From the NCBI GenBank assembly GCA_025361565.1, contig JANYKN010000125.1:31171-95170 (forward strand): a stretch of 64,000 bases of DNA. Reading direction: 5' to 3'. Of the stretch, positions 23,115-55,346 are shown piece by piece. The first letter of the stretch is position 1. Every line of letters starts with the position of its first letter. A program made the translations under genes and the position numbers. This DNA comes from Bacteroidota bacterium (GTDB taxonomy: Bacteria > Bacteroidota > Bacteroidia > Bacteroidales > NBLH01). The notes under the pieces are model-generated. The model did not search any database, was not told the origin of the DNA, and worked only from the letters and a program-made list of their open reading frames with translations.

Positions 23115-24140
23115 CTAAAAATCAGGACACGGAATTGTGACTTGTCTTTGTTTCCGCTTGAGTTTCATATTTTTATTAAATTCATAGATAATCGATACTT
23201 CATGGGCCCCACCGGTAGCACTTTGATTTAATTTTGAAAGCGTATAGTCAAAACTATAACCAAACCGTAGATCGTATATTTCATAACCTATTAGCACAAT
23301 AACCGCATCTAGGGCTTCATACCCGCTCGGTTTTGTAAATACGGGAATTCCACGAAACCACAAACCAAGTGTAAAAGGTACTTTTTTCCAATAAGCACCT
23401 AGATCCAACTGATCGCTCCCATCTTGAGTTTGATATAACATACTAAATGTTACGCTTTCAGTAATTTCGTGACTTTTTCTACTATCACCTTTTATTGGAA
23501 TTCTTGTGCCTCCAAATAAAGAAATTTTAATTGGAACCCTACTTTCATTGCCAATACCAACCAAGGTTTGATTTGGACGTAATAAATTTGCAACCGTAAT
23601 CCCTCCCCAATAACGACTGTGATATGCCAATGCAGAGGCATCAACATCTAAATAACCTGTTTTGGCTAATGTATTGTCGTGATCTGCTGAACCCGAAGTT
23701 GGAGCCCCATCTAAAGTTAGTTGGCTACCAAATATCAATTTAGTAATATCAATTCCACGTTGACCATATTTAAATTTGATGCCTGGTCGTACATGCCAGA
23801 ATCTGTTAATCATAATATCATATGAATACAATAAGCCAATATCCGTCAAATTCAAATTTCCAGTTCCGGCAACATCCCTGACTACTGAAATTCCGATTCC
23901 ACTTTTCATCCTGTCAAAATACTGGTCATAAGAAAAAGCATAAGTTGTAAATGTGCCCGGAATATTAGGCCATTGATCCCTATAATTAAGCACTACCCTG
24001 CTTCCTGCAATTAATCCAGTATAAGAAGGACTTAAAACAAGAGGTGCTGCATAAAATTGTGAAAACTGGACTTTCTGAGCCAAAAGCTGTGCAGTATACA
24101 ACAATATACTCAATATAATTAAAATATTCCTTTTTTTCAA
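23115..24140 (-). CDS. Type IX secretion system membrane protein, PorP/SprF family
   Basis: 341-aa ORF with a signal peptide and an N-terminal motif like that of PorP/SprF proteins (QFSQFYAAPLVLSPSYTG). It has a beta-barrel-like composition and lies immediately downstream of a protein carrying a type-B CTD. Confidence 0.85.
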   Translation of the reverse strand: MKKRNILIILSILLYTAQLLAQKVQFSQFYAAPLVLSPSYTGLIAGSRVVLNYRDQWPNIPGTFTTYAFSYDQYFDRMKSGIGISVVRDVAGTGNLNLTDIGLLYSYDIMINRFWHVRPGIKFKYGQRGIDITKLIFGSQLTLDGAPTSGSADHDNTLAKTGYLDVDASALAYHSRYWGGITVANLLRPNQTLVGIGNESRVPIKISLFGGTRIPIKGDSRKSHEITESVTFSMLYQTQDGSDQLDLGAYWKKVPFTLGLWFRGIPVFTKPSGYEALDAVIVLIGYEIYDLRFGYSFDYTLSKLNQSATGGAHEVSIIYEFNKNMKLKRKQRQVTIPCPDF

Positions 24141-24553
24141 AACTCCCGCTATTTATTACTTATTGTATTTAAACGCTTACAATTCATGAATATTATGATT
24201 TCAATTGAAAATTGATTTAAATTGAATGCATAACTCAATTGATTCATTCTGTTTCCATAAAATGTGTCCTCTTATGTGTGTATCAAATTGAGTACCAAAA
24301 TAAATAATATTTTCTATTATCCCTAATCAAATTTTGATATATAGATTAGTCTGCTTGTTCAAAGCATTCTATTTGAATAATATTTATAAGTCTTTTAACA
24401 AATTATCGCTGAAAAGATGGTGATATCATGAACCTTTAGCTATAACGGAAAGGCTCTATTTATTTCTATAGTTTATTTAAAAGATTTTAATCCAAGTCAT
24501 TCTAATTTTCAATTTTACATAATTTAGTGACCTTAGAAATCAGAATCAAGATC

Positions 24554-24582
24554 AAAAAAAATGCAGCACAAAAGTGCTGCAT
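24554..24582 (-). terminator. Rho-independent terminator after the giant ORF
   Basis: The minus-strand transcript reads AUGCAGCAC-UUUU-GUGCUGCAU (9-bp perfect stem, 24561-24582) followed by U7 (24554-24560). It starts 18 nt after the stop codon. Confidence 0.65.
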
Positions 24583-24600
24583 TTATTCAGTTTGCTTAAA

Positions 24601-27600
24601 TTATCTAATTAATGTGACATCACCGGCATCTTTAAATGGAACTCCATTTCGGTATCTACCTGTAACTTTCCATACATAAACATCCTGAGGGCACAATTTC
24701 CCGTCTCTATATCCATCCCAACCTATCGCAGGATCATCACTTTCAAATATTTTTTCTCCCCAACGGTTGAATATTTCAAGTTTATACATATCTACACCTC
24801 TGTGTATTGGATGGAAAATATCATTCGATACATCATTTGCAACCCATCGACCATCTGAAGGACCTGAACGATTTGGCGAGAAAGCATTCGGGAATTTACA
24901 TACACCAGCAGGTTCAACAACAATGGCTGCATTAATGGATGTTGAATCAAAACAGCCATGCTCGGTGTACACTCTTAATATAATATTAAATGTTCCAGTT
25001 TTAGTATAAAAATGTGTCGGATTCTCTTCAGTAAATACTTCATTGCCATTATCTCCAAAATTCCATTCGAAGATATCGCCGTAAGTTGAACGATTGTAAC
25101 AATATATGGCTGAATTTGGCAACATCACAGTATCTGGAGTTACTAAGAAATCAGCCACCGGTGTTGGATAAACATTTACTGTATCGTGCCTAATAAACAC
25201 ACTATCAATAAGAGCACCTGGTCCCCAAGCATAAAGGTTTACAATATACTGTCCAGGACTATCATAGGTATAATCAGGAGTGATTGAATCTGAACTACCT
25301 CCATCACCAAATTCCCAATACCACTGTGTTGCATACTCGGTTCCATTTGGATTGAACTTAACAGTAAATGGAGCACAACCCGCATAATTCCGCCCACCTG
25401 TATTCTTTGGCAACGGTGCTAATATAGTAATATCATGTTTTGCAGTATCGGAACATGTTACCGATGCAACTACAAGCTTGATAGTAAATGTGCCCCAGGT
25501 TTGATAAGCATGGGAGAAATTGGTATTAAATGAATTATCCAACTGAGACTCTCCATCTCCGAAATCCCATGAATATTTAGGATAAGTATCGCCACTCAAG
25601 TTTTCAAAATTTACCTGTGAACGAGGCCAGGTCTGCGAAAGTGGAGAAGGAGAAAAATCTACTTTTGGAATCCTGAATGCGGTAACCTGATGTGTAACAG
25701 TAGCGGTACAACCTGCAGGGCTGGTTGCAATCAGGGTAATATTAGAAGTAGAATCTCTGTCATCGTAAAGTGCAACATAAGTACGTGGATTTGGAGTCAC
25801 TCCAATTGTGTCTGAATTTCCAAAATTCCAGTAGTAAGAGATTGCACCAGTACTTGTATTGTTAAATGTTACAGTAATTGGAGAACAACCAGTACTATTT
25901 GTCATCTCGAAAGCAGCAGTTGGCGGCATATTGTAATTTACAATTACAGTGTCACTATTGCTACAATCAGTATTTTTAAAAACTTCCCATTTGAAAATAT
26001 TCGGACCTTCGCTTAAATTAGTAACTACTGTAGTTTCTAATGAAGTGTTAGCAAAAGAACCAGTACCATTTAAGACAGTCCATAAACCAGATCCACTGAC
26101 ACCGGCCGATTGAGCAGCCATTGTAGTTGAGCCCGTACAAGTATTCCTGTCTGCACCAGCAGTGATAGAAAATTCACCATTAATAATATTTACCACATCC
26201 GATACAGAAAAACCACCAATTGAAACTGTCCACTTATAAATATTGACGCTACCTGGAAGAATACCAGTAACTTCAGTATTGGGGTCTGTATCATTGGCAA
26301 AATTTCCAGACCCTTGCGAAATAGTCCATTTACCAGTACCAGGGAACGGAGCAGTTGCTGTTAAGAAGGTTCTATCGGTACAAATGGTTTGAGAATTCCC
26401 TGCTTCAGCTGTAATTGAATTGTAGGTTATATTTACATCATCTGAAGATGAGCAACTATTCCAATCCACACTCCAACGGAAGATATTTACACCATAACCA
26501 AGGTTTGTAACAGCAGTAGTCCCTGAATTGGCATTTGCAAAGCTTCCATTACCTGAGAAGATTGTCCAGGTTCCGGTAGCTGCAATGCTTGGCAATTGAG
26601 CTGTTAAAACAGCATTGGGAACAGTTACTGTTTGATCATTTCCGGCAAAAGCTTTAAAATAATTACTCAAAACTTGAACAGTAGAAGTTCCAGTGCAACC
26701 CTTATCTGTAACTGTCCATGCAAAGGTATTAGTTCCTTGTTGCAGGTTGCTTACCAATGTATTTGCCGAAGTTGGAGTAACAATAGTTGTTGTAACACCT
26801 CCACCAGACCATAAACCAACACCTGTTGCACTTAATGGCGTAGCACTTAATGTTGCAAAGTTGTTACAAGTGGTTTCATTAGTACCTGCAGTTGCAGTAA
26901 TTGAATTGTTGGTGATAACCATTTCATCAAAAGAAACACAGGTGCCTTTAGTTACGGTCCATACCAATCGATTATCTCCATTTGCAAGGCCAGTAACAAG
27001 GCTACTTGCCAAAGTTGGAGAAACAAATAAGCCACCACCGGTTTGGGCTGTCCATTTTCCACTAGCACCCCATGTTGGGTTCAATGGTTGGGCAGTAACC
27101 GTAGTTTGGTTTGAACAGATTGCCCTGTCCGCACCAGCAGTTGCTGTATATAAATCATTGGTAATTGTTACATCATCAGTTGCAGGACAACCATCTTTAT
27201 GTGCTGTCCAAGTAAAAGTATTTGCCCCATTGTTCATATTGATAACGGTGGTGGCAAAGCTGGTTGCAGAAACAAAATTACCTGTTCCACTGCTAATTGT
27301 CCATAATCCAGTACCATATAAAGGATCCTCAGCAACTAAAGGATAGGAATTACCGCATGAGATTGCATCAGCACCTGCAGTTGCAGTAAATGAATTGTTT
27401 GATACAATTACTTGATCAGAAACCGTACAGCCATTTCCATTTAATGTCCAAGTAAAGGTGTTAGCTCCAGGTCCCAAATTGCTTACAGTTGTACCTGCTT
27501 GTGTACTATTTGTTATTACTACTGTAGAAGGAATAACGGACCAAGATCCAGTACTAGGTGGTGATACTGTCTGTGCATTTAACGTAGTTGAAGTTTGACA

Positions 27601-30600: not shown

Positions 30601-33600
30601 ATTCATGGTGTCGTTTGCAGAACAAGTACCTCTGGTAACTGTCCAACGTAACCTGTTTATTGCATTTGGCACCAGACCTGAAACAGTAGTGATATATGCT
30701 GAAGGAACAGCAATAACTTGAGTAGTTTGATTGTCTACGGTCCAAACTCCTGTTGCACCTTGTAATATAGGATTAATATTATCAGAAGTGATTGCAGTAC
30801 TATTATTACAAGTCATAAATCCAGTTGCACTTGCAGTAACCTGATCATTGGTGATTATTACATCATCAAAAGCAGTACATCCTTTATCAGTAATTGTCCA
30901 CTTTAATGAATTAACACCAGGATTCAAGCCTGAAACAGTAGCATTATAAATCAGCGAATTAGTAAAAATTCCACTTCCGGAAGGTATTGTCCATACACCA
31001 GTTGCGGTTGGTGAAACAGTCAGTGGATCACGGCCAAGCATTGGATAAGAACCGTTACATGTAAAGTTGTCAGCATTTGCAAAAACAATAAAGGCATTAT
31101 TGAATACGGTGACAGTACTTATTGATGGACATGCTCCGTTATTAGTGATAGTCCATGTAAACACTTCATTGTATGGATTAGCTTTAACCGGCATATTAAC
31201 GGTCGAATTATACAAAGTTGCATTTCCAAAGGTTGTTGTTGAACCACTTGGAACTGTCCATATACCAGAACCAATAACTGGGTTATTTCCATCCATAATG
31301 AATGATGCAGAACAAGTATTTATAGTAGTCCCTGCCACAGAGATATCCGGTGCATTATTGGTAATTATAATATCCTTAGTTGCTATACAAATACCATTTT
31401 TAACTGTCCATGTGAATTTATTATTGCCTTGCTGAAGCCCTGAAACTGTAGTTAAAGCTGATGCACTATTGGCAATAATTCCACTACCGGATTGAAGCGA
31501 CCAGGTTCCAATTCCAACAGTAGGAGAAACCGCTATTAAATTTGCAAAGTTGTTGCAAGTTGGGGCAACATCAGTCGCCGAAGCAGTAACTCCGTTATTG
31601 GTAATTACAATATCATCGGAAGTAGAACATCCTTCTACAGCAGAAGTAACTGTCCATGTAAGCGTATTAAGCCCGGACTGCAAATTATTTACCCTGGTAT
31701 TGTATTGAGTTGACTGAACGAAAGTTCCAGTTCCTCCTGTTGTCCATTTGCCTGTTCCTCCACTTCCGGATACATCATTTCCATCCAGTGGATCGTAAAA
31801 GGTATTACAGGTGACCTGGTCTGTTCCAGCACTTGCCTTGATCTGGTTGTTGGTAATCAACACATCGTCGTTTGCCGTACATATACCTTTGGACACGGTC
31901 CATTTAAAGGTGGTTGTTCCTATCTGTACATTGTTGACTAAAGAATTATATAAGGTATTGTCAACAAAGGTGGCTGTGGTTACGGTCTGGTCTGTCCACT
32001 GGCCTGTTCCCTGTGTAAGTGTAGGGTTGTTACCTGCCAATGTCACAAAATTGTTGCATACTGTAGTTTTATCAGCTCCCGCATTAGCTACCACTTGGTC
32101 GTTTGTAATAACCACTGAATTAGAAGAAGTACAGCTTACACTGGTCCCTTTTGTAAGAGTCCAGGTAAAAGTGTTCGGACCAAATGGCATCCCTGAAGAA
32201 CTAGTATTATTGGCTGAAGGTATTGCAATTGAAGCGCCTAGATTGGTTGTCCATAATCCACGTTCACCAATACCTGGTGCATTAGCATTAAGAACACCTG
32301 TACTATTACATACTGTAGGTTGAGGAGTTGTTGGGTTCGATACCGATGGGCTGCTATTTGTCACAACAACAACGTCTGATGTTGGACATAAAGCACCGTT
32401 AATAACTGTCCATGTAAATGAGTATATATTTCCAGTCAACCCAGTTACTGAGGTTATTGGGCTAGTAGAGTTCACAATATTTACTGCTGCTCCACCTGTT
32501 TGTGTCCAGGTTCCAGTTCCAATTGCAGGAGGGGTGGCTCCTAAATTTATACTCGAGTTACAAGTCTCGATGTCGGTGCCTGCATTCGCAGTGACCCCGA
32601 TATTGTTGATCACCATATCATCTGAACTGGTACAACCTTCTGCTGAAGAAGTGACTGTCCAAGTTAAGGTGTTCAATCCTGATTGTAAATTGTTTACCCT
32701 GGTGTTATACTGCGTTGGCTGTACAAAAGTACCTGAACCTGTGGTAGTCCATTTGCCAGTTCCGCCAATACCTGAAACATCGGTTCCATCAAGTGGATCA
32801 TAGTAAGTATTACAGGTGGACTGGTCTGTACCTGCATTTGCTTTGATCTGGTTGTTGGTAATCACCACATCATCGTTTGCTGAGCAGATGCCTTTGGATA
32901 CTGTCCATTTAAAGGTAGTCGCCCCTATCTGTATATTGTTGACTACAGAATTGTATAAGGTATTATCAACAAAGGTGGCTGTAGTTACAGTCTGGTCTGT
33001 CCACTGACCAATTCCCTGTGTCAATGTTGGATTATTTCCAGATAAGGTTACAAAATTATTACAAACTGTAGTTTTATCTGCACCTGCATTGGCAATAACA
33101 TGGTCGTTTGTGATGACAACCGAATTTGAAGAAGTACAGCTTACACTGGTTCCTTTGGTAAGGGTCCAAGTAAATGTATTTGGGCCTAATGGCAAGTTAG
33201 ATGCTGTTGTGTTAAAGGCTGAAGGCACTGCTATAGTTGACCCAAGAGCTGTTGTCCATATACCTGTTTCCCCTGATCCCGGCGCATTACCGTTTAGCAC
33301 TCCAATACTGTTGCATACTGTTGGTTGAGGCGTTGTTGGATTCGATACCGATGGTGTGCTGTTTGTAACAACCATAACATCGGAGGTTGGGCATGATGCT
33401 CCGTTTATCACCGTCCAGGTAAATGAATAGGTATTTCCTGTCAACCCGGTCACTAAAGTAATTGGACTGGTAGAGTTCACGATATTTACTGCGGCTCCGC
33501 CTGTTTGCGTCCAGCTCCCTGTTCCAAAGGTTGGTGGGGTGGCACTTAAATTGATGCTTGAATTACAAGTCTCGATGTCGGTCCCTGCATTTGAAGTGAC

Positions 33601-36600
33601 TCCGATATTGTTGATCACCACATCGTCTGAACTGTTACAACCTTCTGCCGAAGATGTGACTGTCCATGTTAAAGTGTTCAATCCCGATTGTAAATTGTTT
33701 ACCCTTGTATCATATTGTGTAGCCAGTACAAAAGTACCCGGACCGGTAGTGGTCCATTTACCTGTTCCGCCAATTCCGGAAACATCGGTTCCATCCAGTG
33801 GATCATAGAAATTATTACAGGTTGATTGGTCTACACCAGCACTAGCTGATATCTGGTTGTTGGTTATTACCACATCGTCATTTGCAGAACAAATGCCTTT
33901 GGATACAGTCCATTTAAAGGTTGTTGAGCCAATCTGAATATTGTTTACCAATGTATTATATAAGGTTTTGTCAACAAAGGTAGCTGTTGTTACGGTCAGA
34001 TCTGTCCACTGACCAGTTCCCTGTGTCAATGTTGGATTATTTCCAGATAAGGTTACAAAATTATTACAAACTGTAGTTTTATCTGCACCTGCATTGGCAA
34101 TAACATGGTCATTGGTGATAACAACAGAGTTTGAAGAAGTACAACTTACACTGGTTCCTTTGGTTAGGGTCCAAGTAAATGTATTTGGGCCCAATGGCAT
34201 ATAAGATGCTGTTGTGTTAAAGGCTGAAGGCACAGCTATAGTTGACCCAAGAGCTGTTGTCCATAAACCTGTTTCACCTGATCCCGGCGCATTACCGTTT
34301 AGCACTCCAATACTGTTGCATACAGTTGGTTGAGGTGTTGTTGGATTCGATACTGATGGTGTGCTGTTTGTAACAACCATAACATCGGAGGTTGGGCATG
34401 AAGCTCCGTTTATCACTGTCCAGGTAAATGAATAGGTATTTCCTGTTAAGCCAGTTACAGTGGTTATTGGACTGGTAGAGTTCACGATATTTACTGCGGC
34501 TCCGCCTGTTTGCGTCCAGCTCCCTGTTCCAAGGGTTGGTGGGGTGGCACTTAAATTAATGCTTGAATTACAAGTCTCGATGTCTGTCCCTGCATTTGAA
34601 GTGACTCCAATATTGTTGATTACCACATCGTCTGAACTGGTGCAACCTTCTGCTGAAGATGTGACTGTCCATGTTAAAGTGTTCAATCCTGATTGTAAAT
34701 TGTTTACTCTGGTGTTATACTGTGTTGGCTGTACAAAAGTACCTGAACCTGTTGTAGTCCATTTGCCTGTACCTCCAATACCTGACACATCGGTTCCATC
34801 CAGTGGATCATAGTATGTATTGCAGGTAGACTGATCAGTTCCTGCACTTGCTTTGATCTGGTTGTTGGTAATCACCACATCGTCATTTGCAGAACAAATG
34901 CCTTTGGATACAGTCCATTTAAAGGTGGTCACACCTATCTGTACATTGTTGACTACGGTACTATATAATGTATTGTCAACAAAAGTGGCTGTGGTTACGG
35001 TCTGGTCTGTCCACTGCCCTATGCCTTGGGTAAGTGCTGGATTGTTACCGGCCAGGGTCACAAAATTGTTACATACTGTGGTCTTGTCAGCTCCTGCATT
35101 GGCAATAACATGGTCGTTTGTGATGACAACCGAATTTGAAGAAGTACAACTTACGCTGATCCCTTTGGTAAGAGTCCAGGTAAATGTATTTGGGCCCAAT
35201 GGCATATTAGATGCTGTTGTGTTAAAGGCTGAAGGCACAGCTATAGTTGACCCAAGAGCTGTTGTCCATAAACCTGTTTCACCTGATCCCGGTGCATTAC
35301 CGTTTAACACTCCAATACTGTTACATACTGTTGGTTGAGGTGTTGTTGGATTCGATACCGATGGTGTGCTGTTTGTAACAACCATAACATCGGAGGTTGG
35401 GCATGAAGCTCCGTTTATCACTGTCCAGGTAAATGAATAGGTATTTCCTGTCAACCCGGTCACTAAAGTAATTGGACTGGTAGAGTTCACGATATTTACT
35501 GCAGCTCCGCCTGTTTGCGTCCAGCTCCCTGTTCCTAGGGTTGGTGGGGTGGCACTTAAATTGATGCTTGAATTACAAGTCTCGATGTCGGTCCCCGCAT
35601 TTGAAGTGACTCCAATATTGTTGATTACCACATCATCTGAACTGGTGCAGCCTTCTGCTGAAGAGGTGACCGTCCATGTTAAAGTGTTCAATCCCGATTG
35701 TAAATTATTTACCCTGGTGTTATATTGGGTTGGCTGTACAAAGATCCCTGAACCAGTGGTAGTCCATTTACCTGTTCCGCCAATACCGGATACATCATTT
35801 CCATCCAATGGATCGTAATAATTATTGCATGAATTTTTATCAACCCCGGCACTTGCCGCAATTTGGTTGTTTGTGATTATCACGTCGTCAGCATTACTGC
35901 AACCCCCTTGTGATACTGTCCACCTGAAGGTAGTAGTTCCGATCCTTACGTTGTTGACTAGGGTATTGTACAAAGTACTGGCCACAAATGTAGCCGTGGT
36001 GACAGATTGGTCTGTCCACTGTCCAGAACCCTGTGTCAATGAAGGGTTGTTCCCTGACAAAGTTACAAAGTTGTTACATGCAGTGGTTTTGTCCGCTCCT
36101 GCATTGGATATCACCTGGCTGTTGGTTATGCTTACTGAATTGGATGAAGTACAAGATACATTGATACCTTTGGTCAATGTCCACGTATAGGTATTTAATC
36201 CATATGGCATGCCGGATACTGTTGTGATATTGCTTGATGGGTTTGCAATTGTTGAGCTTCCTCCACCTGTCCATAATCCGCTTTCTCCCAATGCGGGTGC
36301 ATTGCCTTGCAGAACCGCGTTACCTGTACAAACTTCAGCCAATGGTGTGTTTGGGTTCGATATCGATGGGCTGCTGTTCGTCACAACAACAACATCTGAA
36401 GCGTTGCATGTTCCATTTACAACTGTCCAGGTAAAAGAAAAAGTGCCACCTGTCAATCCTGTCACTGAAGACTGCCGGTTAAGTGAATTGGTTATCGCAA
36501 CCGCCGCACCGCCCGTCTGCGTCCAGCTACCTATCCCTGAAGATGGGGCAACTGCACTCAGGTTTATATTATTGTTGCAGGTTTCTATATCCAAACCCGC

Positions 36601-39600
36601 ATCTGCAGTTACTCCTATATTGTTTATTACCACATCATCGGATCCTGTACAACCTTCAGCGGCAGATCTTACTGTCCAAGTAAGGGTATTTAGGCCAGGT
36701 TGCAAGTTGTTCACCCTGGTGTTATACTGGCTGGATGTCACAAATGCGATGGTTCCTGTGGCACTCCATAATCCTGTTCCACCACTTCCGGATACATCAT
36801 TTCCATCCAATGGGTCGTAATAGTTATTGCATGAATTTTGATCAGCCCCGGCACTTGCTGCAATTTGGTTGTTTGTGATTATCACGTCGTCGTTTGCAGT
36901 ACAGATGCCTTTGGAAACAGTCCATTTAAATGTGGTAGCTCCAATTTTTACATTGTTAACTATTGTATTATACAAGGTATTGTCAACAAAGGTGGCCGTG
37001 GTTACTGTTTGATCTGTCCATTGCCCTGCTCCCTGAGTAAGTGTTGGGTTGTTACCTGCCAGGGTTACAAAATTGTTACATACCGTAGTCTTGTCAGCAC
37101 CTGCGTTAGCTACCACATGATCGTTTGTAATTACAACCGAGTTCGAGGAAGTACAACTGACGCTAGTTCCTTTTGTTAGAGTCCAGGTAAATGTATTTGG
37201 ACCTAATGGCATATTAGATGCTGTTGTGTTAAAGGCTGAAGGAACTGCTATGGTTGATCCCAGAGCAGTTGTCCATAAGCCGGATTCACCCGCTCCTGGA
37301 GCATTACCATTAAGCACGCCGATATTGTTACATACGGTTGGCTGAGGTGTTGTTGGGTTAGACACAGATGGGCTGCTATTGGTCACAACAACAACATCAG
37401 AAGTCGGGCATGATCCTCCATTAACCACAGTCCATGTAAATGAATAGGTATTACCCGTCAATCCGGTTACCAATGTTACAGGGCTCGTTGAGTTGACTAT
37501 GGTCACAGCAGCACCACCTGTTTGAGTCCAGCTTCCTGTTCCCAAGGTAGGTGGAGTTGCTCCTAAATTAATGCTTGAATTACAAGTTTCTATGTCGGTT
37601 CCTGCATTCGAAGTAACACCTATATTGTTAATTATAACATCATCAAAGCTGGTACAACCCTCTGCAGAGGATGTTACTGTCCAAGTCAATGTATTCAAGC
37701 CGGACTGCAAATTATTTACCCTGGTGTTGTATTGTGTATTATGAACAAAAGTTCCTGGCCCAGTAGTAGTCCATTTCCCGGTTCCACCGATTCCGGAAAT
37801 ATCATTTCCATCCAGCGGATCATAATAAGTATTGCAGGTTGACTGATCAGCACCAGCACTCGCTGAAATTTGGTTGTTGGTGATCACTACATCATCATTA
37901 GCAGAACAAATTCCTTTGGATACGGTCCATTTAAAGGTAGTAGAACCAATTTGTACATTGTTTACCAATGTGTTGTACAAAGTTTTGTCTACAAATATAG
38001 CCGTTGTTACAGTTTGATCTGTCCATTGACCTATACCTTGCGTCAATGTAGGATTGTTACCTGATAAAGTTACGAAATTATTACAAACCGTTGTTTTATC
38101 TGTTCCTGCATTAGCTACCACATGGTCGTTTGTGATGACAACCGAATTTGAAGAAGTACAACTTACGCTGGTTCCTTTGGTAAGAGTCCAGGTAAATGTA
38201 TTTGGACCAAGAGGCATACCAGAGGCAGTTGTATTATTGTTGGTTGAAACAGCAATGATGGATCCAAGATTTGTCGTCCATAAACCACTTTCACCTGTTG
38301 CGGGAATACTGGCATTAAGCACACCAACACTATTGCAAACCGTGGCTTGCGGAGTTGTAGGATCGGAAACCGATGGCGTACTGTTGGTAACAATAACAAC
38401 ATCGGAAGTTGGACATAATCCACCATTCACCACTGTCCATGTAAATGAATAAATATTACCTGTCAATCCAGTTACCAATGATATAGAGCTGGTCGAGTTA
38501 GCAATAGTCACTGCTGCACCACCTGTTTGAGTCCAGCTTCCTGTTCCAACAGGAGGAGGAGTAGCGCTTAAATTGATGCTTGCATTACAGGTCTCGATAT
38601 CGGTTCCTGCATTCGAAGTCACCCCGATATTGGTAATAATAACATCATCAGAACTTGTACATCCTTCTGCTGATGACGTTACTGTCCAGGTTAGCGTATT
38701 AATACCTGCTTGCAAATTATTTACTCTGGTGTTATATTGGCTCGACAAAACAAAAGTTTCAGTACCAGTTGAACTCCATACACCTATTCCAGTTCCAGAA
38801 ACATCATTTCCATCCAGTGGATCATAATAAGTATTACAGGTTGTTCGATCAATTCCTGCAATTGCTTTCATCTGATTATTGGTAATAATTACATCGTCGT
38901 TGGCAGAACAAATTCCTTTGGATACGGTCCATCTAAGAGTAGTAGTTCCTACCCTTACATTGTTTACCAATGTATTGTATAAAGTATTATCTGTAAAAGT
39001 GGCTGACGTTATTGACTGATCTGTCCATTGGCCAACTCCCTGAGTTAATATTGGGTTGTTACCAGAAAGAGTCACAAAATTATTACATGAAGTAGTTTTA
39101 TCAACTCCTGCATTGGCAATAACATGATTATTTGTAATGATGACTGAATTGGAAGAAGAACAGCTTACATTGGTTCCCTTTGTAATTGTCCAAGTAAATG
39201 TGTCTGGACCTAAAGGCATACTGGAAGCAGTTGTATTGTTTGAAGAAGGAGCTGCTATAATTGAAGTTCCTCCACTTGTCCATAATCCGGTTTCACCTGC
39301 AAGTGGTGCATTACCCTGTAATACAGCGCTTCCATTACAGACTTCTATTGCTGGAGTGGTAGGGTTGGAGGCTGTAGGTGTACTATTAATTACAACAACT
39401 ACATCCGTAGCGGAACAAGTTGCATTAACTACAGTCCATGTGAAAGAATAAGTACCTCCGGCTAAACCAGATATAGATGTTTGTCTGTCTGTTGAATTTG
39501 CTATTGTTATTGCAGCACCACTTGTTTGAGTCCAGCTTCCAGTGCCAATTGTAGGTGCAATGGCACTTAAATTAATACTTGAAGAGCAAGTTTCAACATC

Positions 39601-42600
39601 AGATCCAGCATCAGAAGTAACCCCATTATTTGTAATTCCAACCTGGTCAGAATGTGTGCAACCTTCTGAGGCAGAGGTAACTGTCCATGTTAAAGTATTT
39701 AAGCCTGGACGTAAACCTGTAACTCCAGAATTAAATAAAGTTGGAGTAGTGATTACAACTAGTGGATTAATTGATGTCCAATGACCTGTTCCACCACTTC
39801 CCGAAACATCATTTCCATCCAATGGATCATAAGTGGAATTACAAGTTATGCGGTCTGCACCAGCACTTGCGAGAATCTGATCGTTGGTTACTATTACATC
39901 ATCATTTGCAGAACAAGTCCCTTTGGATACTGTCCATTTAAAAGTTGTTGAACCAATCTGCACATTGTTAACCAATGTGCTATATAAAGTATTGTCAACA
40001 AAGGTGGCTGTTGTCACTGTCTGATCTGTCCATTGACCAGTTCCTTGAGTTAATGCAGGATTATTACCTGACAAGGTTACAAAATTGTTGCAAACCGTGG
40101 TTTTATCAATCCCTGCATTTGCAACTACATGGTCGTTTGTAATGACAACTGAATTAGAAGAAGTACAGCTTACACTGGTTCCTTTGGTAAGAGTCCAGGT
40201 AAACGTGTTTGGGCCAAGTGGCATTGCAGAAGCTGTAGTATTATTTGTAGATGGCGCTGCTATTATAGAACCAAGGTTCGTACTCCATAAACCGGTTTCG
40301 CCTGCAGCAGGAACAGCTGCATTAAGAACTCCGATGCTGTTACAAACTGTTGGTTGAGGTGTTGTTGGGTTAGAAACCGATGGCGTACTATTGGTGACAA
40401 CTACAACATCCGATGTTGGACATAATGCTCCGTTAACAACTGTCCATGTGAATGAATATGTATTTCCAGTTAAGCCGGTTACCAATGTTATTGGACTGGT
40501 TGAGTTGACTATTGTCACTGCTGCTCCTCCAGTTTGTGTCCAGCTTCCTGTTCCAATAGCTGGTGGAGTGGCACTCAAATTAATGCTTGCACTACAGGTT
40601 TCAATATCTGTTCCTGCATTGGAAGTAACACCGATATTGGTAATTACTACATCGTCAGAGTTGGTGCAGCCTTCAGCTCCTGAAGTGACTGTCCATGTCA
40701 GTGTATTGAGTCCGGACTGTAAAGTATTTACTCTACTGTTATACTGTGTGGACTGGACAAATGTTCCAGGTCCTGTAGTGGTCCATTTACCTGTCCCGCC
40801 GATTCCTGATACATCATTTCCATCCAGTGGATCATAATAAGTATTACAGGTTGATTGATCTACACCTGCACTTGCCTTTATTTGGTTGTTGGTGATAATT
40901 AATTCGTCGTTAGCAGAACAGATACCTTTGGACACAGTCCATCTAAATGTGGTAGCACCTATTCTAACATTGTTGACCAAAGTATTATACAAGGTATTGT
41001 CAACAAAAGTAGCTGTTGTTACTGTCTGATCGCTCCATTGTCCTGTTCCTTGTGTCAGTGTAGGGTTGTTACCTGCAAGTGTTACAAAATTGTTACACCC
41101 TGTAGTCTTGTCGGCCCCTGCATTTGCTACCACATGATTGTTTGTGATGACTACCGAATTGGAAGAGGTACAACTTACATTGGTTCCTTTGGTTAGAGTC
41201 CAGGTAAAGGTATTTGGGCCTATTGGCATACCAGATGCTGTTGTATTGTTTGCTGAAGGTACTGCTATCGTTGAACCAAGGTCAGTTGTCCATAAACCTT
41301 TTTCGCCAGTACCTGTAACATCTGCCTGAAGAACTCCGTTACCATTACATACAAAGGCCGTTGGAGTTGTTGGATTAGAAACTGTTGGGCTACTATTTGT
41401 AACCACTACAGTTGCCGCATTTGAACAAGTTCCATTTGTTATTGTCCATGTAAATGAATAAACACCAGCAGTAAGTCCGGTAACCTGTGTTGTTGCACTA
41501 TTGGCGTTGATTATAGTTGCACCTACAGGACCACTTGATTTTACCCAAGTACCCGTTGCAGGAAAAGGATCCTGCGCTCCAAGTGAAATAACTGAATTAC
41601 ATGTTTCAAAATCAGTACCTGCATTTGCGACTAATTTGCTATTTGTAATACCAACTTCATCAAATGCTGTGCAACTTTCAGCCCCAGAAGTAACTGTCCA
41701 CCTGAATGTATTTAAACCCGGATCAAGACCCGTAACTCCAGTATTAAATAGAGTAGCAGTTGTAACCAAAGCGGTATTACCAATTGAAGTCCATAAACCA
41801 GTACCTCCAAGACCTGCAACATTGTTTCCATCTAAAGGTCCATAAAAATCGTTACATGTAACCTGATCTACCCCAGCTGTTGCTGTAATCTGATTGTTTG
41901 TTATCCTGACAATATCAGAAACAGTACAAGGAGTAAGACCTAAAGAAACAGTCCATCTAAAATCTGTAGATCCCTGTCTTAACCCTGTTACACTTGTATT
42001 ATAAAGAGTATTTGCTACAATAGTGGCAGAGGTAGCATTCATATCGAACCAAAGACCGTTTCCTTGAGTCAATTTTGGATTATTACCAGAAAGAGTAGTA
42101 AAATTGGCACAAGCAGTCGATTTATCTATACCCGCATTTGACACAACGGTATTATTTGTGATAATTACATCATCAGTGCTTGTACACAAGTTTTTTGTAA
42201 CAGTCCATCTGAATGTATTAGTTCCAAGGTTTAAACCTGTTACTGTAGCATTATAATTGGTTACATTATCAAAGGTTGCCACATTGTCAAGACGTGACCA
42301 TACTCCTGTTCCAATAGATGGAATTCCAATAACTGTCAGCAAAGTTGAATTGGTGCAGACTTCATTGTCGGCTTCAACAAGAGCAGTGGTTGGTGTGTCA
42401 TTATAAATATCAACTTGTGTAGCATTTGTACAAGTAGTAGCATTTAGTGTTTTAGAAATTGTCCATTGGAATGTATTTTGACCACTGGCCAAATTGCTAA
42501 CTAACGATGTATTGAGTGAAGGTGTTGCAATAGATGCACCACCCAATGTTGCCACCCAATTACCACTTCCACCTACTGGAGGTAAATTACCGTTTAAGGT

Positions 42601-45600: not shown

Positions 45601-48600
45601 ATAGTTTCCATCGCAGGTGTAATCATCCGGGCCAGCATTTGATGCTACTGAATAGTTTGATATCATTACATCATCAAAGGAAGAACAAGTACCTACGGTA
45701 ACGGTCCAACGATAAATATTATCCCTACGTCCCACGAGGGTGACAGTCGTATTATAAGAAGAAGGATTAGTAAATGTACCTACACCAACCTGAGTCGTCC
45801 AAAGACCAGTTCCAGTCGGGCTGGGATCAGTACCACTAAGTGTAAAAGTACTGTTACAGCTTTGTTGATCTGGCCCAGCAGTAACTGCAGGAACAAGATT
45901 ATATGTAATAAGTACATTTGAAGTACTTGTACATGAACCATTTGTAATTGTCCATGTTAGCGTATTTAAACCGGGGCTTAAGCCAGAAACTGTGGTATTA
46001 AAACGGGTGTTACTAACAAAAACAGCCGTTGGTGGAACAGGAGGATTTATTACCCATGAACCAGTACCATAAACAGGATTATTGGCTGCAAGTACAGCCG
46101 ATCCATTACAACTGGTTTGTGCAGCACCGGCAGCAGAAGTTGAAGGCCTATCATTATAAAGGATAACATCATCTGTGGCTGTGCAAGCTCCAAGAACAAC
46201 AGTCCATCTAAAGGTATTGGCACCAGGACCTAATCCAGTAACAGCAGAAAGACTAGACGTAACTACAGTTGCTGAGCCTGCTCCACTTACAAGTGACCAG
46301 GTTCCACTACCAGTGGCAGCCATTGTTGCGGTTGTAGTACAAACATGCTGATCCGCTCCTGCATTGGCGACCACATTTGATCTGGTAACAACACTTGTAG
46401 CGTCGTCAAAACAGATACCCTTGCTTAGATGCCAATTAAACGTATTTGAATTAAGATTTAAACCAGTTACTAAGCTTGATGGGTTTGATGGAGTTGCAAT
46501 TGTACCGGTTGAAGCTACTATTGTCCATAATCCGGTAGCTCCTGCAGGAGTTGCATTGCCTGTTAAGTTTGCAGAAGTTCCACACACTGCCTGGTTTGTT
46601 GCAGTTGCATCAACAGTATTGTTGGTAATCTGAACAATATCTGCCGTAGAACAAGTACCATTTGTAACAGTCCACCTCAGGGAATTAACACCACTACTCA
46701 AAAGAGAAACTGTTGTTGAAGGACTAACGGCGCTTGCAAAAGTTCCAGGTCCACCAAAAGAGTCCCATAAGCCAGATTCACCTGCTTTTAATGGTGTTGC
46801 ACTTAATGCGTAACTGTTATTTACACATGCCTGAGCATCAACGCCTGCATTTATAACTGGAGTCACATCTGTAATAGCAACCACATCAGATGCAGTACAT
46901 CCGCCATCAACAACAGTCCATGTAAAATTAGTTGTTACGCCATAAGGCAAATTTAAAACTTGAGTGTTCGCAGCTGTAGTTGAAACTATAGTAACACCTG
47001 CAACAGGAGACCAAGTTCCAATACCAGTACCCGAAGCTGGAGTTGCAGCCAAATAAAGTGGATTCTGGTTAGAACAAGTCTTAGCTTGATCCGGGCCTGC
47101 ATTAGCTGTGAGTGTACAAGCTATATTGATATCAAATTTATTGGCAACATTATAAATTGTTTGAGTATTCCATGAAGTACTTCTACCACCCGAAACCCTA
47201 ACGTCGATTTGTGGTAAATTATTGGCAGTAACCGTATTAACCGTATAGTTTTGTGTGAAAACAGAACCAGTAACATCCCATCCGGAAGTAGACGCTGTTA
47301 GAGTAACAGCCGGATTTTCAACAGGGAAACTAATTACCGGATTTACTGTTTTATCCATTGCTATTGAATAAGTTGCAACAATTGAAAAAGTAGGAGTTGC
47401 ACTTGTAACTGTAGCCACACTTGTGGTTAATAATGTAACTGTGGGATTAATGAAATCGATACTAAATACATCGGCTTGATTAAAAGTAACAGTTTGGTTA
47501 TTTAGAGCAAGATCCTGACCGCCTGCTACACGCACATCAATATTTGGCATAGCCAAATTATCACCCAATACAGAATAATAGGCTGTATAAACGGTATTTC
47601 CTACCGACCAGACTCCACTATTAAATGTTAATTTATTGGGGATCAAAGGATTTTCTCCACCGGTCGGAAAACTAATTACTGGTGTAACCGCAGTATTCAT
47701 TGCCTCGCTCCAGTTAACTGTTATGGTAAAGTTATTACCTGGAGATTGAGCATCGGTAACCAAATTAAGAAATGGTGATGCGCCTATTACGGCTGGAGTA
47801 ATACTTACAACAGTAGGGGGAGTTCCATCAAGCGCCGAAAGCTGTGTTGGAATAGCTGGTGTTCCAGTTATATTAAAAGTTGTACCTGCAATTGCAGCAG
47901 CATTTTTTGTCCAAACACCACCATTCCAATTTGCTCCAAAAAGAGTTGCTCCAATCACATCAGCAGGAAGAAAAGCTAAATTTGTAAATGAAGCGGAAGC
48001 TATACCACCTGAAACTAACCAATATCTATTTAAATATTCAGTAACTGAAGCATTAATATTTGAATTTTTTCCATTTATTACTCTCATACCGATAAAGCCA
48101 CCAGCTAATGCGGTAGGTGTAGCAGTAATTGGAGAATAATTTGTTGAACCAATTCCATCACCAATTGGAAAAGTAAATGCTGCAATTGCACCATATGTTT
48201 TTCTAAACTCACCAGTACCATCAGCAATTACATAGTTATTTGAACCAGGAGCTCCGGCAATTGTTGCTCCTGCCAATAAATTTAAATTAAAGGTTGACAA
48301 TGTGAGCCTGCCTCCTGTTAAAATAAGAGAACCGGCAGCAGCTGTTCCAACATTTGTTGCAACGCCCAATGTCACACTACCTACTGTATTATTTATTTCT
48401 AAATTATAAAATGTAGTTGACTGAACACCAGCTATTTGTTGTGCTCCAGTTCCATTGAAAGCAACTGTAAAATTTCCTGCAAAATTTCCTGAAGTATTTG
48501 TCCAGTTTCCGGCTACGCCAATATTGTTTACTAAAGTAAGGGCTGTTCCTGCTGTTTTATTTAGAATAACATTATAGAAATTATTTACTGAAGGCCCTGT

Positions 48601-51600
48601 TATATTTTGAGGATTTAAATTATTAGAAAAAGTAACTGTTTTATTATTATGAGAAAAAGTTCCGGCATTTGACCAAGCTCCAGTAACTGAAACATCTGCT
48701 CCTAAAGTTAAATTTCCAGATGTTATAGTAACTGCATCCAAAGATGTTCCACTAAAAATTGCTCCATTTGAATTATTAACAACTAAATCTGTGGTATTTG
48801 TAGTATTTGGAATAGTGATTGTAGGATTTCCTCCAGCAGTTGCAATTGTTGAAGTTCCTGCAACATTAGTAAGAATAGACCCTCCTCCAACAGTTGGCGA
48901 ATTGCGAAGAGTCAAGGTATTAGCACCAACAGTTAAAACACCGGAAGATAGCGTTAATGTTCCATAAACATCTAATGTACCAGCCAGTGCAAGACCTCCA
49001 GTACTATTTAAAATTAAATTATTTAAGGATATATTATTAGGAATAACATAAGCAGCTGCTCCATTTAAAGTCAGCGACGATGTATTGTTCACAGATAAAT
49101 TAGCAACTGTTCCTGTAATAGCATTACTTAGAGTAAGCGTATTTGCACCAACAGCAAAAGAACCTGATGGTAAATTTAAGGTTCCTAATACTGTAAAGCT
49201 ATTTCCCATGCTTGCACCAGAAGCATCATTTAGACTTAAATTGGTATAAGAACCTGTGCCAGTGAGATTATGAACACCCAAACCTCCATTAGTTAAAGTA
49301 ACAAAACCAGTTCCTATTTGAGAACCGGAATTAGAAATACTGCCATCGACGCTCAGCGTATTTGCAACATTATCCAAAACAACACCAGGATCAATGGTCA
49401 AATTATTATCAATCATATAACTTGCCCCCAGTGTTTTTGTACCGGAACCCTGCAGATATAAATTATAATAAGTTGTGACAGGAGTTTTGATTGTCTGAGC
49501 TCCTGCAAAATTATAATAAACATCATTAGAAACTGATGAGGCATTTAAAGTTCCGAGAGTCATCGGAGTAATTGCATTGCCATAATATAATTTACTGTTT
49601 GCCCCATTTATCCAAGTAGAGCCAGCAACAGTACCGTTAAGAGTTCCAGCTGCAATCGTTATTCCGGCAGTATTTGAATTGGTTACACTCACAGCAGTTG
49701 ATACAACAACATTCCCTCCAAATGTAATCGCTTGTGTTCCAGCAATTGATTGTGTTGCATTAAAAGTATAAATTCCCGCACCAGTAGTAAAAATACCATT
49801 ATTGACAATACCACCCGAAAATGTATAATCCTCATTAACAGATGAATTCCATATTCCATTATTGGTAACCGAGCCGGCAAACGTTTTAGACCCTCCGGTA
49901 TTATTATTAATTAAAGTTCTTGTTCCTGCTATAGTTGTTGCTCCGGTTACTGTTAATGTCACATTTCCAATTGTACCATCTCCGGTAGGCATTGTTAAAG
50001 TACCGCCTATGTTAACTACACCAAGTGTTCCATGGTTAATTGTACCACCTGAAATATCAACATTGGTTAAATTTGCTGCACCACCCGCATTTGAGTCACC
50101 AAGCGTGCCTATTATAAAAGTTGTACCTGTTACATTTAAATTTTGAGCAACAGGATCAAGTGTTGACAAAGAACCAATGGTTAAATTTTCGTTAACAGTA
50201 ACAGCACCAACAGTAATTGTCTTGGTAAAAGCGCTACCGGAAGTTCTCAAATTTGCATAAGTTCCATTTTTTATATTCTGAGCAGCACCCGCACTGTAGT
50301 CCCAGGTTGAATTGGCATTATTTGTCAATGTTGGTGCGGGAGCAGCAGCACCTTTATATGAAACGTATGTATTTACATCATTTAACCAGGTTCCTCCGCC
50401 AAGTAAATTGCCGCCAATGGTAATAAATGGGCTTGCACCTATATTTTGATTTGTAAGTGTACCAGCTACAGTTACATTTCCGCCAAAAGTTATGGGAAAA
50501 TTTCCGGTAATTGACTGTGTTGCAGTTAATCCAATAGCACCAGTACTAAAATCAATTGCACTTCCGGTATTATTTATTCCTCCGGCAAAATTAAATGCAG
50601 TAGCAGAACTTACAACAACAGTACCCACATTTGAAAAAGCTCCGGTGAATGTTTTTGTACCGGTTGTACTGTTGGCATTAAAAGTTAAAGTTCTTAAGTT
50701 TGAAACAGTGGTTGTACCTGTAACATTTATAGTTCCCCTCCCAATAAATCCATTTCCTGATGCACAAGTCAAATTACCAGCAATATTTACATTACCAGTA
50801 GCTGCTCCATCAATTGTTCCGCCAACCATATCTACACTTTGAAAATTAGCTATTCCTGCGGCATTGGTTGTGTTAATTGTGCCTGTAAGCGTTGTAACTC
50901 CTCCAACAGCTAATGTAAAAGCGGGAATATTGATTGCTCCACCCGTACCAACATTTAAGGTACCAGTTATACTAAGATTTCCGCCAAGTGTTACGATACC
51001 GTTGGTAACTGTCATGTTTCCTGCCACAGTATATGCAGCTGGTGTTGTTTTTGTTCCTGTGCCACTAATATTAAGATTTCCGAAAACAGTAGGCCCGGCA
51101 TTTATTGTCCAGTTATTTGCACCAGTAATATTTACCGTACTAGTCAGATCCAATGTGTTGGTAGTCATTAATGTTGGAAAACAGGAAGCCCCAGTTCTTG
51201 AAGATGTATATACTGTATTTGGTCCTAAAGTAAAAGTCCCCAATGCCGTACCGGTAATTGTAAAATTACCATCAGCAAGTATACCTGAAGTTACTGAAAG
51301 ATTTCCATTTACTATAATATTGTTTGTTAAAGTTGCAGCTATACCCGCTATTTTTGAAATAACTAAATTATTGAAAGTTATGGAAGAAGTATTTGAAATA
51401 TTTGAAGCAGCGGCGCCATTAAAAGTTACTGTCCCTGTACCTGCAGTAAAAGTGGCTGTGCCTAACTTTGTGAAATTTCCAGCAATACTGATATTGAATG
51501 CTCCGGCGTTAAGTGTGTTGGCAGCATTTAAATTTAAGCTTCCATTTAAAATGATATTTGCAGCTAAAGTTTTAGTTCCTACTCCGGTAGTTATTAAATC

Positions 51601-53120: not shown

Positions 53121-53660
53121 ATGAAAAACAGCTTTATTTTCGCACTGATGATTGTAGCTGCCATGTGGGCGGTTTTTATTGTTAATCTATTGGTTCCCAT
53201 AGACTTTAATCAGTTTGGAATTATACCACGTACGGTTGAAGGAATCAAAGGAATACTTTTTGCACCTTTCCTGCATGCCAATTTAGCCCATATCGTTTCC
53301 AATACAATACCCATGCTTATTTTAACTACAGTTTTGTTTTTGTTTTATCGAAATATTGCCGTTCGCGTTTTACTGCTTTCAACTGTTATGGGCGGTACAT
53401 TAGTTTGGTTTTTTGGGCGTAATGCCTATCATATTGGAGCCAGTGGGGTAATATTTGCTCTTGTGGCATTTCTAATTGCAAGCGGTATTTTCAGGAGACA
53501 AGTTAAAGCCTTGTTGATTGCCATCGTTATTTTTGTCTTTTATGGAGGAGTGGTATGGGGAATTCTACCCACGCAACAAGGAGTTTCATGGGAAAGCCAT
53601 TTATTTGGTTTTTTATCGGGAATTGCGCTGGCATATCTTTTTAAGGATTCGGACAAATAG
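53121..53660 (+). CDS. Rhomboid-family intramembrane serine protease
   Basis: 179-aa ORF with 6 TM helices, HANLAHIVSN, the catalytic GASGVIFAL (GxSG) and a downstream His (SWESHLFGFLSG). Confidence 0.85.
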   Translation: MKNSFIFALMIVAAMWAVFIVNLLVPIDFNQFGIIPRTVEGIKGILFAPFLHANLAHIVSNTIPMLILTTVLFLFYRNIAVRVLLLSTVMGGTLVWFFGRNAYHIGASGVIFALVAFLIASGIFRRQVKALLIAIVIFVFYGGVVWGILPTQQGVSWESHLFGFLSGIALAYLFKDSDK

Positions 53661-54596: not shown

Positions 54597-55346
54597 TTAA
54601 GAGTTGAGTATTTTATCTATTTTTTTTTCGATGTTTTGCAGCCTTAATTCCAAATCAGGTACTTTATCAAATTGATTTATAATAAGTTGATTCGCTTTCC
54701 AAATCACTTTAATATTTACCTTGTTAATTGATATATCCATATAATTTGGATTATCGTACTTTAAACTAATAAATTCTCCATCCGTAAATATTCTGCCAAT
54801 ATGGAATTTATCCCCTTCAATAATTATAAAAATAGGTTTGATTGAATCATTGGCAAGATTACCTAAATCAAATGGCTCTGCAACAATGACATCACCATGT
54901 TTAATACCCACGCAATTTGTAATCATCTCAGAACCAGTGTATTCAAAAGCAATACTGGCAGATTTAAGATTTGGAAGTCTAATTGATTGTAATCCTTGTA
55001 AATAGGTTTGATTGTTAAATTTTTGAATAAATTCAATCCTATCCTTTTCTTTCACATAAGGAATTGAATTATCTAAACTGATTTGTTTATATGATTTCTC
55101 AAACTTCTGACTTTTTTCAGAGATATGATATATTTCATTGATGGTCAATTCTTTTCTAAGAAGTTGATCAACCGACAATTTATAAAATTCTGCAATTTCA
55201 ATCACAGTATCAATTTTCGCCTCAGCACGTCCTTCTTCATATGCTCCGATGCTTCCTCTTTTTAGATTAAACAAATCAGCAAATCCAGTTTGGCTAATTT
55301 TTTTAGCAGTGCGGATTTTTTTTATATTTCTACCAAAGTAGGACAT
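54597..55346 (-). CDS. XRE-family HTH regulator fused to an S24 (LexA/CI-like) C-terminal domain
   Basis: 249-aa ORF. The N-terminus is HTH_XRE-like (IKKIRTAKKISQTGFADLFNLKRGSIGAYEEGRAEAKIDTVIEIAEFYKLSVDQLL). The C-terminus has the S24-like motif GSEMITN..IKHGDVIVAE (compare GDSM...GD.v.v) and a later Lys context (FISLKYDNPNY). Confidence 0.75.
   Translation of the reverse strand: MSYFGRNIKKIRTAKKISQTGFADLFNLKRGSIGAYEEGRAEAKIDTVIEIAEFYKLSVDQLLRKELTINEIYHISEKSQKFEKSYKQISLDNSIPYVKEKDRIEFIQKFNNQTYLQGLQSIRLPNLKSASIAFEYTGSEMITNCVGIKHGDVIVAEPFDLGNLANDSIKPIFIIIEGDKFHIGRIFTDGEFISLKYDNPNYMDISINKVNIKVIWKANQLIINQFDKVPDLELRLQNIEKKIDKILNS

Follow-up and report, generated by a model that had tools for sequence, protein, structure and literature searches.

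Ten and a half tandem copies of a four-domain unit in the stalk of a putative giant surface protein of a Bacteroidota bacterium

A stretch of 64,000 nucleotides (the window) from the genome of an uncultured Bacteroidota bacterium (assembly GCA_025361565.1, contig JANYKN010000125.1, positions 31,171 to 95,170) carries on its minus strand a giant open reading frame (ORF), in the middle of which a block of four different domains, A-B-C-D, is repeated in tandem 10.5 times. The array is genuine, though of a rather ordinary kind: it has been reshuffled by recombination and lies in a putative giant fibrillar surface protein with the features of a type IX secretion system (T9SS) cargo. On the favored reading (at a probability of about 0.75), the array is the middle portion of the stalk, and the one that sets its length, in a giant cell-surface filament secreted by the T9SS, and it is old and has been homogenized by exchange between its units.

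Organization of the super-repeat array

A hidden Markov model (HMM) trained on the giant protein itself delimited 84 stalk domains of about 84 amino acids each, half of which (42 domains, numbers 20–61) belong to the four-domain unit A-B-C-D. The A-type domains start at amino acids 3348, 3686, 4021, 4356, 4690, 5025, 5359, 5694, 6029, 6364, and 6699, and the successive units measure 338, 335, 335, 334, 335, 334, and four times 335 amino acids before the array ends in an A-B half unit. The array and its units are as follows:

31585–42141, minus strand: super-repeat array of 10.5 A-B-C-D units (self-HMM, BLASTN)
41128–42141, minus strand: U1 (1014 nt)
40123–41127, minus strand: U2
39118–40122, minus strand: U3
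38116–39117, minus strand: U4 (1002 nt)
37111–38115, minus strand: U5
36109–37110, minus strand: U6 (1002 nt)
35104–36108, minus strand: U7
34099–35103, minus strand: U8
33094–34098, minus strand: U9
32089–33093, minus strand: U10
31585–32088, minus strand: U11 (A-B only)

An earlier reading of the window made from the letters alone (the sequence-only reading) had described ten full copies and a half copy of this block, and its coordinates agree with ours to within 6 nt. The offset of 1005 nt gives the strongest autocorrelation peak of the gene (identity 0.43 overall), with values of 0.68–0.95 in 250-nt bins over much of the region 31.5–40.5 kb vs. a background of about 0.25–0.35, and a BLASTN search of the gene with one unit recovered 10 copies in register. 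Tandem Repeats Finder gave no result, the sole reason being that it handles periods of up to 500. The exact 1,005-nt offsets that had been reported hold between most neighboring units but not where U1, U4, or U6 is involved, these units being longer or shorter than the others. At the protein level, domain identity averages 78% at lags of 4, 8, and 12 domains vs. 36–38% at all other lags, and it is likewise 36–38% in the non-repeated half of the stalk. A higher-order period of three units, suggested by an autocorrelation peak at 3012, was rejected: unit identity at lag 3 is 72.7%, as compared with 75.0% at lag 1 and 74.4% at lag 2, and the peak is explained by the division of the lag-2 offsets between 2007 and 2010. 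The ORFs on the other strand in this region (e.g., 31811–32323, 34853–35338, and 36209–36820) were treated as shadows of the giant coding frame, since they lie wholly within it.

Assembly of the array and variation between samples

The sample evidence consists of Logan contigs (k=31) from eight runs (X1–X8) belonging to one sediment-metagenome study. Record counts, contigs, and depths are nearly equal within the pairs X1/X3, X2/X4, X5/X7, and X6/X8, so that the independent data sets number four at most. It is unlikely that the array itself, or its copy number and unit order, was produced by short-read metagenome assembly through repeats, although short-read assemblies are known to misassemble tandemly repeated adhesins (bioRxiv 10.1101/2025.09.30.679566) and the Logan contigs are indeed broken into pieces of 60–1400 nt across 32.0–40.8 kb. 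The array pieces in X1 and X2 that are alike at 98% or more match the window with 0–1 mismatches; most units share few 31-mers, and unique sequence fixes their order (contigs of 752, 958, 637, and 1364 nt). The k-mers common to U7–U9 have a depth of about 2.6–2.7x, as expected for the 2–3 copies in the window, and the same four-domain unit occurs independently in the related contig L001 described below. Two features of this region are relevant to the copy number:

35786–36817: stretch of about twofold depth, candidate extra 1002-nt unit (104-nt and 958-nt contigs, X1–X4)
35858–35889, second copy at 36860–36891: 32-nt exact repeat, at which the k=31 graph loops

The 104-nt contig corresponds to 35786–35889 and the 958-nt contig to 35860–36817, and the whole stretch is present once in the window. 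Both contigs show about 1.8–2.0 times the depth of the flanks, namely 22.6 and 23.5, respectively, vs. 11.4–12.6 in X1, and 49.2 and 44.5 vs. 24.4–25.4 in X2, which fits a collapsed 1002-nt unit. The stretch 35786–35889 differs from its copy at 36788–36891 at five sites (36814, 36823, 36840, 36845, and 36859) in the window and in X6/X8; in X1–X4, the latter copy carries the letters of its paralog at all readable sites. The 958-nt contig, which shows one mismatch to the window, covers exactly 30 nt of the second copy of the 104-nt stretch before it stops, which implies that its end coincides with the initial 30 nt of the 104-nt contig and that the graph contains a loop with a period of 1002. 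Since it ends in the letters of the paralog, at least one junction into a copy of the 35786 type exists in X1–X4. The window letters 36818–36861 are absent from the contigs of X1–X4, which is not proof of their absence from the samples, since these contigs drop variants; a 151-nt contig in X6/X8 reproduces the window junction 36755–36905 exactly. On the simplest interpretation, which we consider somewhat likely, the dominant genome in X1–X4 has an additional 1002-nt unit that the window lacks; as a minimum, a conversion tract of 46–104 nt differs between the samples. What is in doubt in the assembly is at most the count of one unit plus the phasing of U7–U9, and the warning of an assembly hazard given in the sequence-only reading applies to the unit at 35.8–36.9 kb rather than to the whole 10 kb.

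A contig in X5/X7 that goes back by 1002 nt (from 36859 to 35858) was considered as direct proof of the extra unit and was found not to be decisive, because the shared stretch of 32 nt is longer than k=31, so that a de Bruijn contig may follow this path with no supporting read where the alternative edges are missing. The coverage of X5 is low and patchy. This run also contains a contig of 804 nt with 96.6% identity (24 mismatches) to the part of U5 at 37379–38089, whereas the other X5 array contigs match exactly; no unit of the window is as close to U5 as this contig, which represents either a strain allele or a unit that the window lacks and indicates further heterogeneity.

Age of the array and divergence of its units

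Only one useful relative was obtained from the genome scan, the contig JBNKRJ010000137.1 ("MAG: Bacteroidales bacterium," MAG standing for metagenome-assembled genome; hereafter L001), which shows about 68% nucleotide identity to the window in the aligned stretches; the best protein match to one unit is 39% identical. The sole yield of the metagenome scan was the JGI contig Ga0316611_1026023 (1,723 nt), which is 66% identical to U8. It spans only one and a half units, the array having evidently broken that assembly.

The L001 gene is collinear with that of the window, as reciprocal best matches pair domains one-to-one for window domains 7–12, 14, 16, 18–21, and 62–78. Its array comprises four A-B-C-D units (R1–R4) in the same order as the 10.5 units of the window. 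The array domains are among the best conserved (74–81% amino acid identity between the two genes), while the flanking stalk domains show 45–73%. Neighbor-joining trees were built with bootstrap for each domain type from the units of both genes. U1 and R1 form a pair with 100% bootstrap support in segment A and 88% in segment B, and the B domain of U3 clusters with them (100%). Since U1 and R1 are orthologous in these two segments, the array is older than the split from the L001 lineage. Variability in copy number, which had been expected in the sequence-only reading, is suggested both by the 10.5 vs. 4 units of two MAG assemblies and by the twofold depth in X1–X4, all of which are based on short-read assemblies or contigs.

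The L001 gene also shows differences outside the array. Six domains following it (amino acids 4158–4653 of the L001 stretch) have no counterpart in the window. At its start (L001:686–21148), a signal peptide runs straight into PKD-like domains, about 19 of which precede the ortholog of window domain 7; the beta-strand-repeat head described below is therefore missing in L001.

The units are 60–88% identical to each other in nucleotides over their whole length, most of them being 12–40% diverged in DNA. With the Nei-Gojobori method, the median synonymous divergence (dS) is about 1.6, i.e., saturated, the median nonsynonymous divergence (dN) is 0.19, and their ratio (omega) is about 0.08; across all unit pairs, dS ranges from 0.5 to saturated. 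The similarity between units at the protein level is mostly due to purifying selection rather than to a recent origin, since dS is saturated and omega is so low. The idea that the block was amplified recently was not confirmed, and nor was the description of 10 kb of near-identical 1-kb repeats: shared 31-mers cluster in 33.0–35.7 kb, and most units share almost none. The copies at 33.1–36.1 kb, which had been described as nearly identical at the protein level, are so only in part. U7, U9, and U10 are 90–93% identical to U8 in amino acids and 82–88% in nucleotides over the whole unit, and 94–98% nucleotide identity is confined to the C and D domains of U7, U8, and U9:

33094–35610, minus strand: near-identical part, C and D domains of U7–U9 (dense shared 31-mers; identical tracts of 67–84 nt, global p ≤ 0.004)

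The 60-mers at 33541, 34546, and 35551, which had been singled out for their likeness, differ at 1–3 positions, and an exact repeat of 94 nt lies across the boundary between U9 and U10. This repeat and the C-D halves of U7–U9 would suit a recent burst, in which the whole block was amplified lately from one unit and all differences are young; such a burst is possible for the U7–U9 sub-block only and is contradicted for the whole array by the unit identities of 60–88%, the dS values, and the presence of at least two unit lineages (the type of U1 and the U3 B domain, and the rest) common to the window and L001, so that we regard it as very improbable.

U3 (39118–40122) and U6 (36109–37110) have C and D domains of a second subtype, recognizable, for example, by the motif NRQSSV/DRQTSI, which are closer in amino acids to the C and D domains of L001 than to those of other units in the window. 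Hence at least two old unit lineages are intermingled in the array.

Recombination between units

Recombination between units is well supported by permutation tests, conflicting segment trees, and the heterogeneity of dS, in line with the homogenization proposed in the sequence-only reading. The closest paralog switches along the unit in a sliding nearest-neighbor scan. The pairwise homoplasy index (PHI) permutation test gave z=−12 on U1–U10, z=−4.1 when U7–U9 (the part most prone to mis-phasing) were left out, z=−8.9 when the L001 units were added, and z=−7.6 on third codon positions only. A GENECONV-like scan detected identical tracts of 67–84 nt in the pairs U7-U8, U7-U9, U8-U9, and U9-U10 (global p ≤ 0.014). 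The patchiness already noticed by eye is also present, as the 65-mer at 33076 matches the copy at 34081 in its first part and that at 35086 in the remainder. Between U7 and U9, dS is saturated in domain A, 0.96 in B, 0.08 in C, and 0.23 in D; this spread of more than 10-fold within one unit pair points to exchange and not to differences in selection.

The segment trees conflict with each other. In segment D, all the units of the window (U1 included) and all those of L001 (R1 included) form genome-specific clades with 79–99% bootstrap support, whereas in segments A and B the genome-specific clades comprise U2–U11 and R2–R4, with U1 and R1 paired. The history along the unit is thus mosaic, and in segments A, B, and D the paralogs of one genome resemble each other more than the orthologs of the two genomes do. 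Conflict of this kind between segments is the classical hallmark of concerted evolution. The homogenizing exchange within each genome, by gene conversion or unequal exchange, would be repeated and patchy, the latest events being those in the C-D halves of U7–U9.

Simple vertical divergence after an ancient amplification, with the similarity kept by purifying selection and no exchange, would account for the saturated dS and the omega of about 0.08 of most units, and U1 does have an ortholog in L001. It is nevertheless scarcely credible, as the PHI test is significant in every design, including third positions and the set lacking U7–U9, the conflicts between segment trees are strongly supported, dS values within one pair vary more than 10-fold from segment to segment, and significant identical tracts link U7, U8, U9, and U10.

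Architecture of the giant protein

The giant ORF has no internal stop in its translation (9,193 amino acids). Its parts and the gene next to it are as follows:

24601–52182, minus strand: giant ORF, putative T9SS-secreted surface filament or adhesin (ORF list and translation)
47107–52182, minus strand: signal peptide and head, amino acids 1–1692 (read directly from the sequence)
25930–47106, minus strand: stalk of 84 Ig/PKD-like domains (Ig, immunoglobulin), amino acids 1693–8751 (self-HMM segmentation, PF22352 matches)
24913–25905, minus strand: three canonical PKD domains (PF18911/PF00801)
24661–24897, minus strand: T9SS type-B C-terminal sorting domain, CHU_C/Bac_Flav_CTERM (PF13585, TIGR04131)
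23115–24140, minus strand: PorP/SprF-family outer-membrane protein gene, directly downstream of the giant gene (PF11751, E=3.8e-56)

An N-terminal Sec signal peptide, MKRNYFITQSMLRTIIISFLFLVLSGSLGAQ, was recognized by inspection of the protein. The head is a beta-strand-repeat module of about 1,650 amino acids, rich in Thr, Gly, and Asn; Pfam and NCBIfam profile searches gave zero matches to it, and its homologs (29–37% identity) are mostly T9SS type-A cargo proteins, one of them being named "beta strand repeat-containing." The stalk domains match PF22352 (K319L-like_PKD) in Pfam profile searches, and 81 of the 84 contain exactly two Cys. At the C-terminus, PF13585 scores 35.9 bits, above the cut-off of 27. 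The PorP/SprF protein is presumed to be the cognate partner of this type-B cargo; a non-coding gap of 460 nt (24141–24600) separates its start from the stop of the giant gene. No core T9SS genes were found within the 64-kb window.

Comparison with known filaments and adhesins

In both sequence and fold, the nearest match to the repeat domains is the stem of GhpA (grappling-hook protein A), which belongs to Aureispira sp. CCB-QB1 (PDB 9flp, 9fls, 9flu–9fly, and 9g8b). A phmmer search of the PDB with one unit gave GhpA (9flp_A) with E=1.6e-70. The AlphaFold2 model of U8 (predicted local distance difference test score 91.1) shows four beta-sandwich domains, and its best Foldseek matches are base and stem fragments of GhpA (9fly, 9fls, and 9flp; E=5e-18, 29% identity); titin fragments are also among the matches.

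GhpA is described as consisting of a signal peptide, a head, 52 Ig-like repeats, and a T9SS C-terminal domain, with a PorP homolog (GhpB) encoded downstream, and as forming a heptameric stalk of 240 nm (bioRxiv 10.1101/2024.01.29.577165). The window protein resembles it as a putative giant T9SS cargo in which a signal peptide and a head are followed by many consecutive Ig-like domains with conserved cysteines and by a T9SS C-terminal domain, with a PorP gene downstream. It differs in having 84+3 stalk domains vs. the 52 repeats of the GhpA stem, and its head is a beta-strand-repeat module like that of T9SS type-A cargo and not the GhpA hook: the 1,694 N-terminal amino acids gave no match to the hook module (residues 26–1402) in a PDB search at E ≤ 1. 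The GhpA stem is reportedly glycosylated on each Ig-like domain, whereas the Bacteroidota O-glycosylation motif D-[ST]-[AILVMT] occurs nowhere in the array (amino acids 3348–6866); nor does it occur in the head, and there are 13 sites in the whole protein. The heptameric, hollow stem is that reported for GhpA, the window stalk being known from its sequence and a model. No OmpA/PorE-like domain of the GhpC type was found among the ORFs of at least 150 amino acids scanned against Pfam, and the next gene after PorP encodes an ABC ATPase on the other strand. A super-repeat of four domains is not mentioned in the parts of the GhpA report that were consulted (bioRxiv 10.1101/2024.01.29.577165).

SprB, the gliding adhesin of Flavobacterium johnsoniae, is a repetitive protein of several thousand residues with a type-B C-terminal domain and an SprF/PorP gene directly downstream. 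The window protein is likewise large and repetitive, with a CHU_C/TIGR04131 C-terminal domain and its presumed SprF/PorP partner immediately downstream. The SprB repeat (PF13573) gave zero matches in seven overlapping pieces covering the whole giant protein, and no upstream partner on the same strand resembling sprC-sprD was found, the upstream neighbor (53121–53660) being a rhomboid gene on the opposite strand. The extenders of RTX and fibrillar adhesins are also tandem Ig-like spacers projecting a binding head, and their arrays are also prone to recombination and short-read misassembly. They have a one-domain unit, often with identical copies, and are exported by the type I secretion system, as in the case of MpAFP/MpIBP with about 120 identical Ig-like repeats of 104 amino acids (PMC4083281); the window array has four different domains per unit, a DNA divergence of 12–40%, and a predicted export by the T9SS. 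The super-repeats of the titin A-band (7 and 11 domains) resemble the array in that a block of several distinct Ig-like types recurs; titin is a eukaryotic protein with no sequence relationship to that of the window, and its period matches the lattice of a partner filament, no such partner being known here.

Proposed mechanism of length change

Since DNA similarity exists only between domains four apart, misaligned homologous pairing would be expected to occur only in whole-unit steps (about 1005 nt, 335 codons). Each unequal crossover or conversion would then keep the reading frame and the domain boundaries, and would add, remove, or overwrite four domains, i.e., about 16–18 nm of stalk if each domain spans about 4–4.5 nm. 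Near-identical domains would never become neighbors in the stalk, and strong purifying selection maintains the four domain types.

Alternatively, if the stalk is multi-stranded like that of GhpA, A-B-C-D might be a structural super-repeat setting the axial register for lateral contacts between strands. This would explain the strong purifying selection on the four types despite saturated synonymous sites, the A-B-C-D order kept in the L001 gene at about 68% identity, and the high conservation of the array domains relative to those flanking them; length would then change only in whole-unit or half-unit steps. We consider such a role rather improbable.

Several points weigh against the array being an old, homogenized, length-setting part of an exported filament. 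Secretion, filament formation, and function are read from the genes of an uncultured MAG, and the TIGR04131 match at the C-terminus (28.1 bits, E=1.6e-6) is under the curated cut-off of 35. The array ends in an A-B half unit, so that its changes have not been strictly whole-unit. The clades U2–U11 and R2–R4 could equally have arisen by independent lineage-specific amplification and not by homogenization; only the segment-wise conflicts (U1/R1 in D and U3 in B) strictly require exchange. The fine mosaic of U7–U9 could in part be a phasing artefact of the short-read assembler, the k=31 contigs being shattered there, and the count of four in L001 may itself be collapsed, because this is a MEGAHIT k141 contig in which R2 and R3 are 96–97% alike in A and C.

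Genomic neighborhood

The surrounding genes are chromosomal housekeeping genes, among them mreBC, a penicillin-binding protein (PBP) transpeptidase gene (likely PBP2), purH, recQ, and tatC. A 1,036-amino acid ORF at 56639–59749 (plus strand), in which an N-terminal TerB domain is fused to an ABC ATPase and an ABC-2 membrane domain, adjoins a PspA/IM30 gene (55645–56361) and a gene encoding a LexA-like helix-turn-helix and S24 peptidase protein (54597–55346). Two adjacent, overlapping ORFs at 9641–11651 (plus strand) with an LPG_synthase_TM domain (E=1.8e-39 and 5.2e-11) look like a pair of tandem paralogs.

Significance of the super-repeat

The copy number assembled at 35.8–36.9 kb is not to be trusted without long reads. 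The array provides a quantified example of a giant bacterial surface filament that would change its length by recombination within a multi-domain register. Identical domains side by side may favor misfolding, and a register of this kind would keep them apart. These data also extend the stalk domains of the GhpA type to a Bacteroidales-like sediment lineage, in a protein with another head module and almost twice as many domains.

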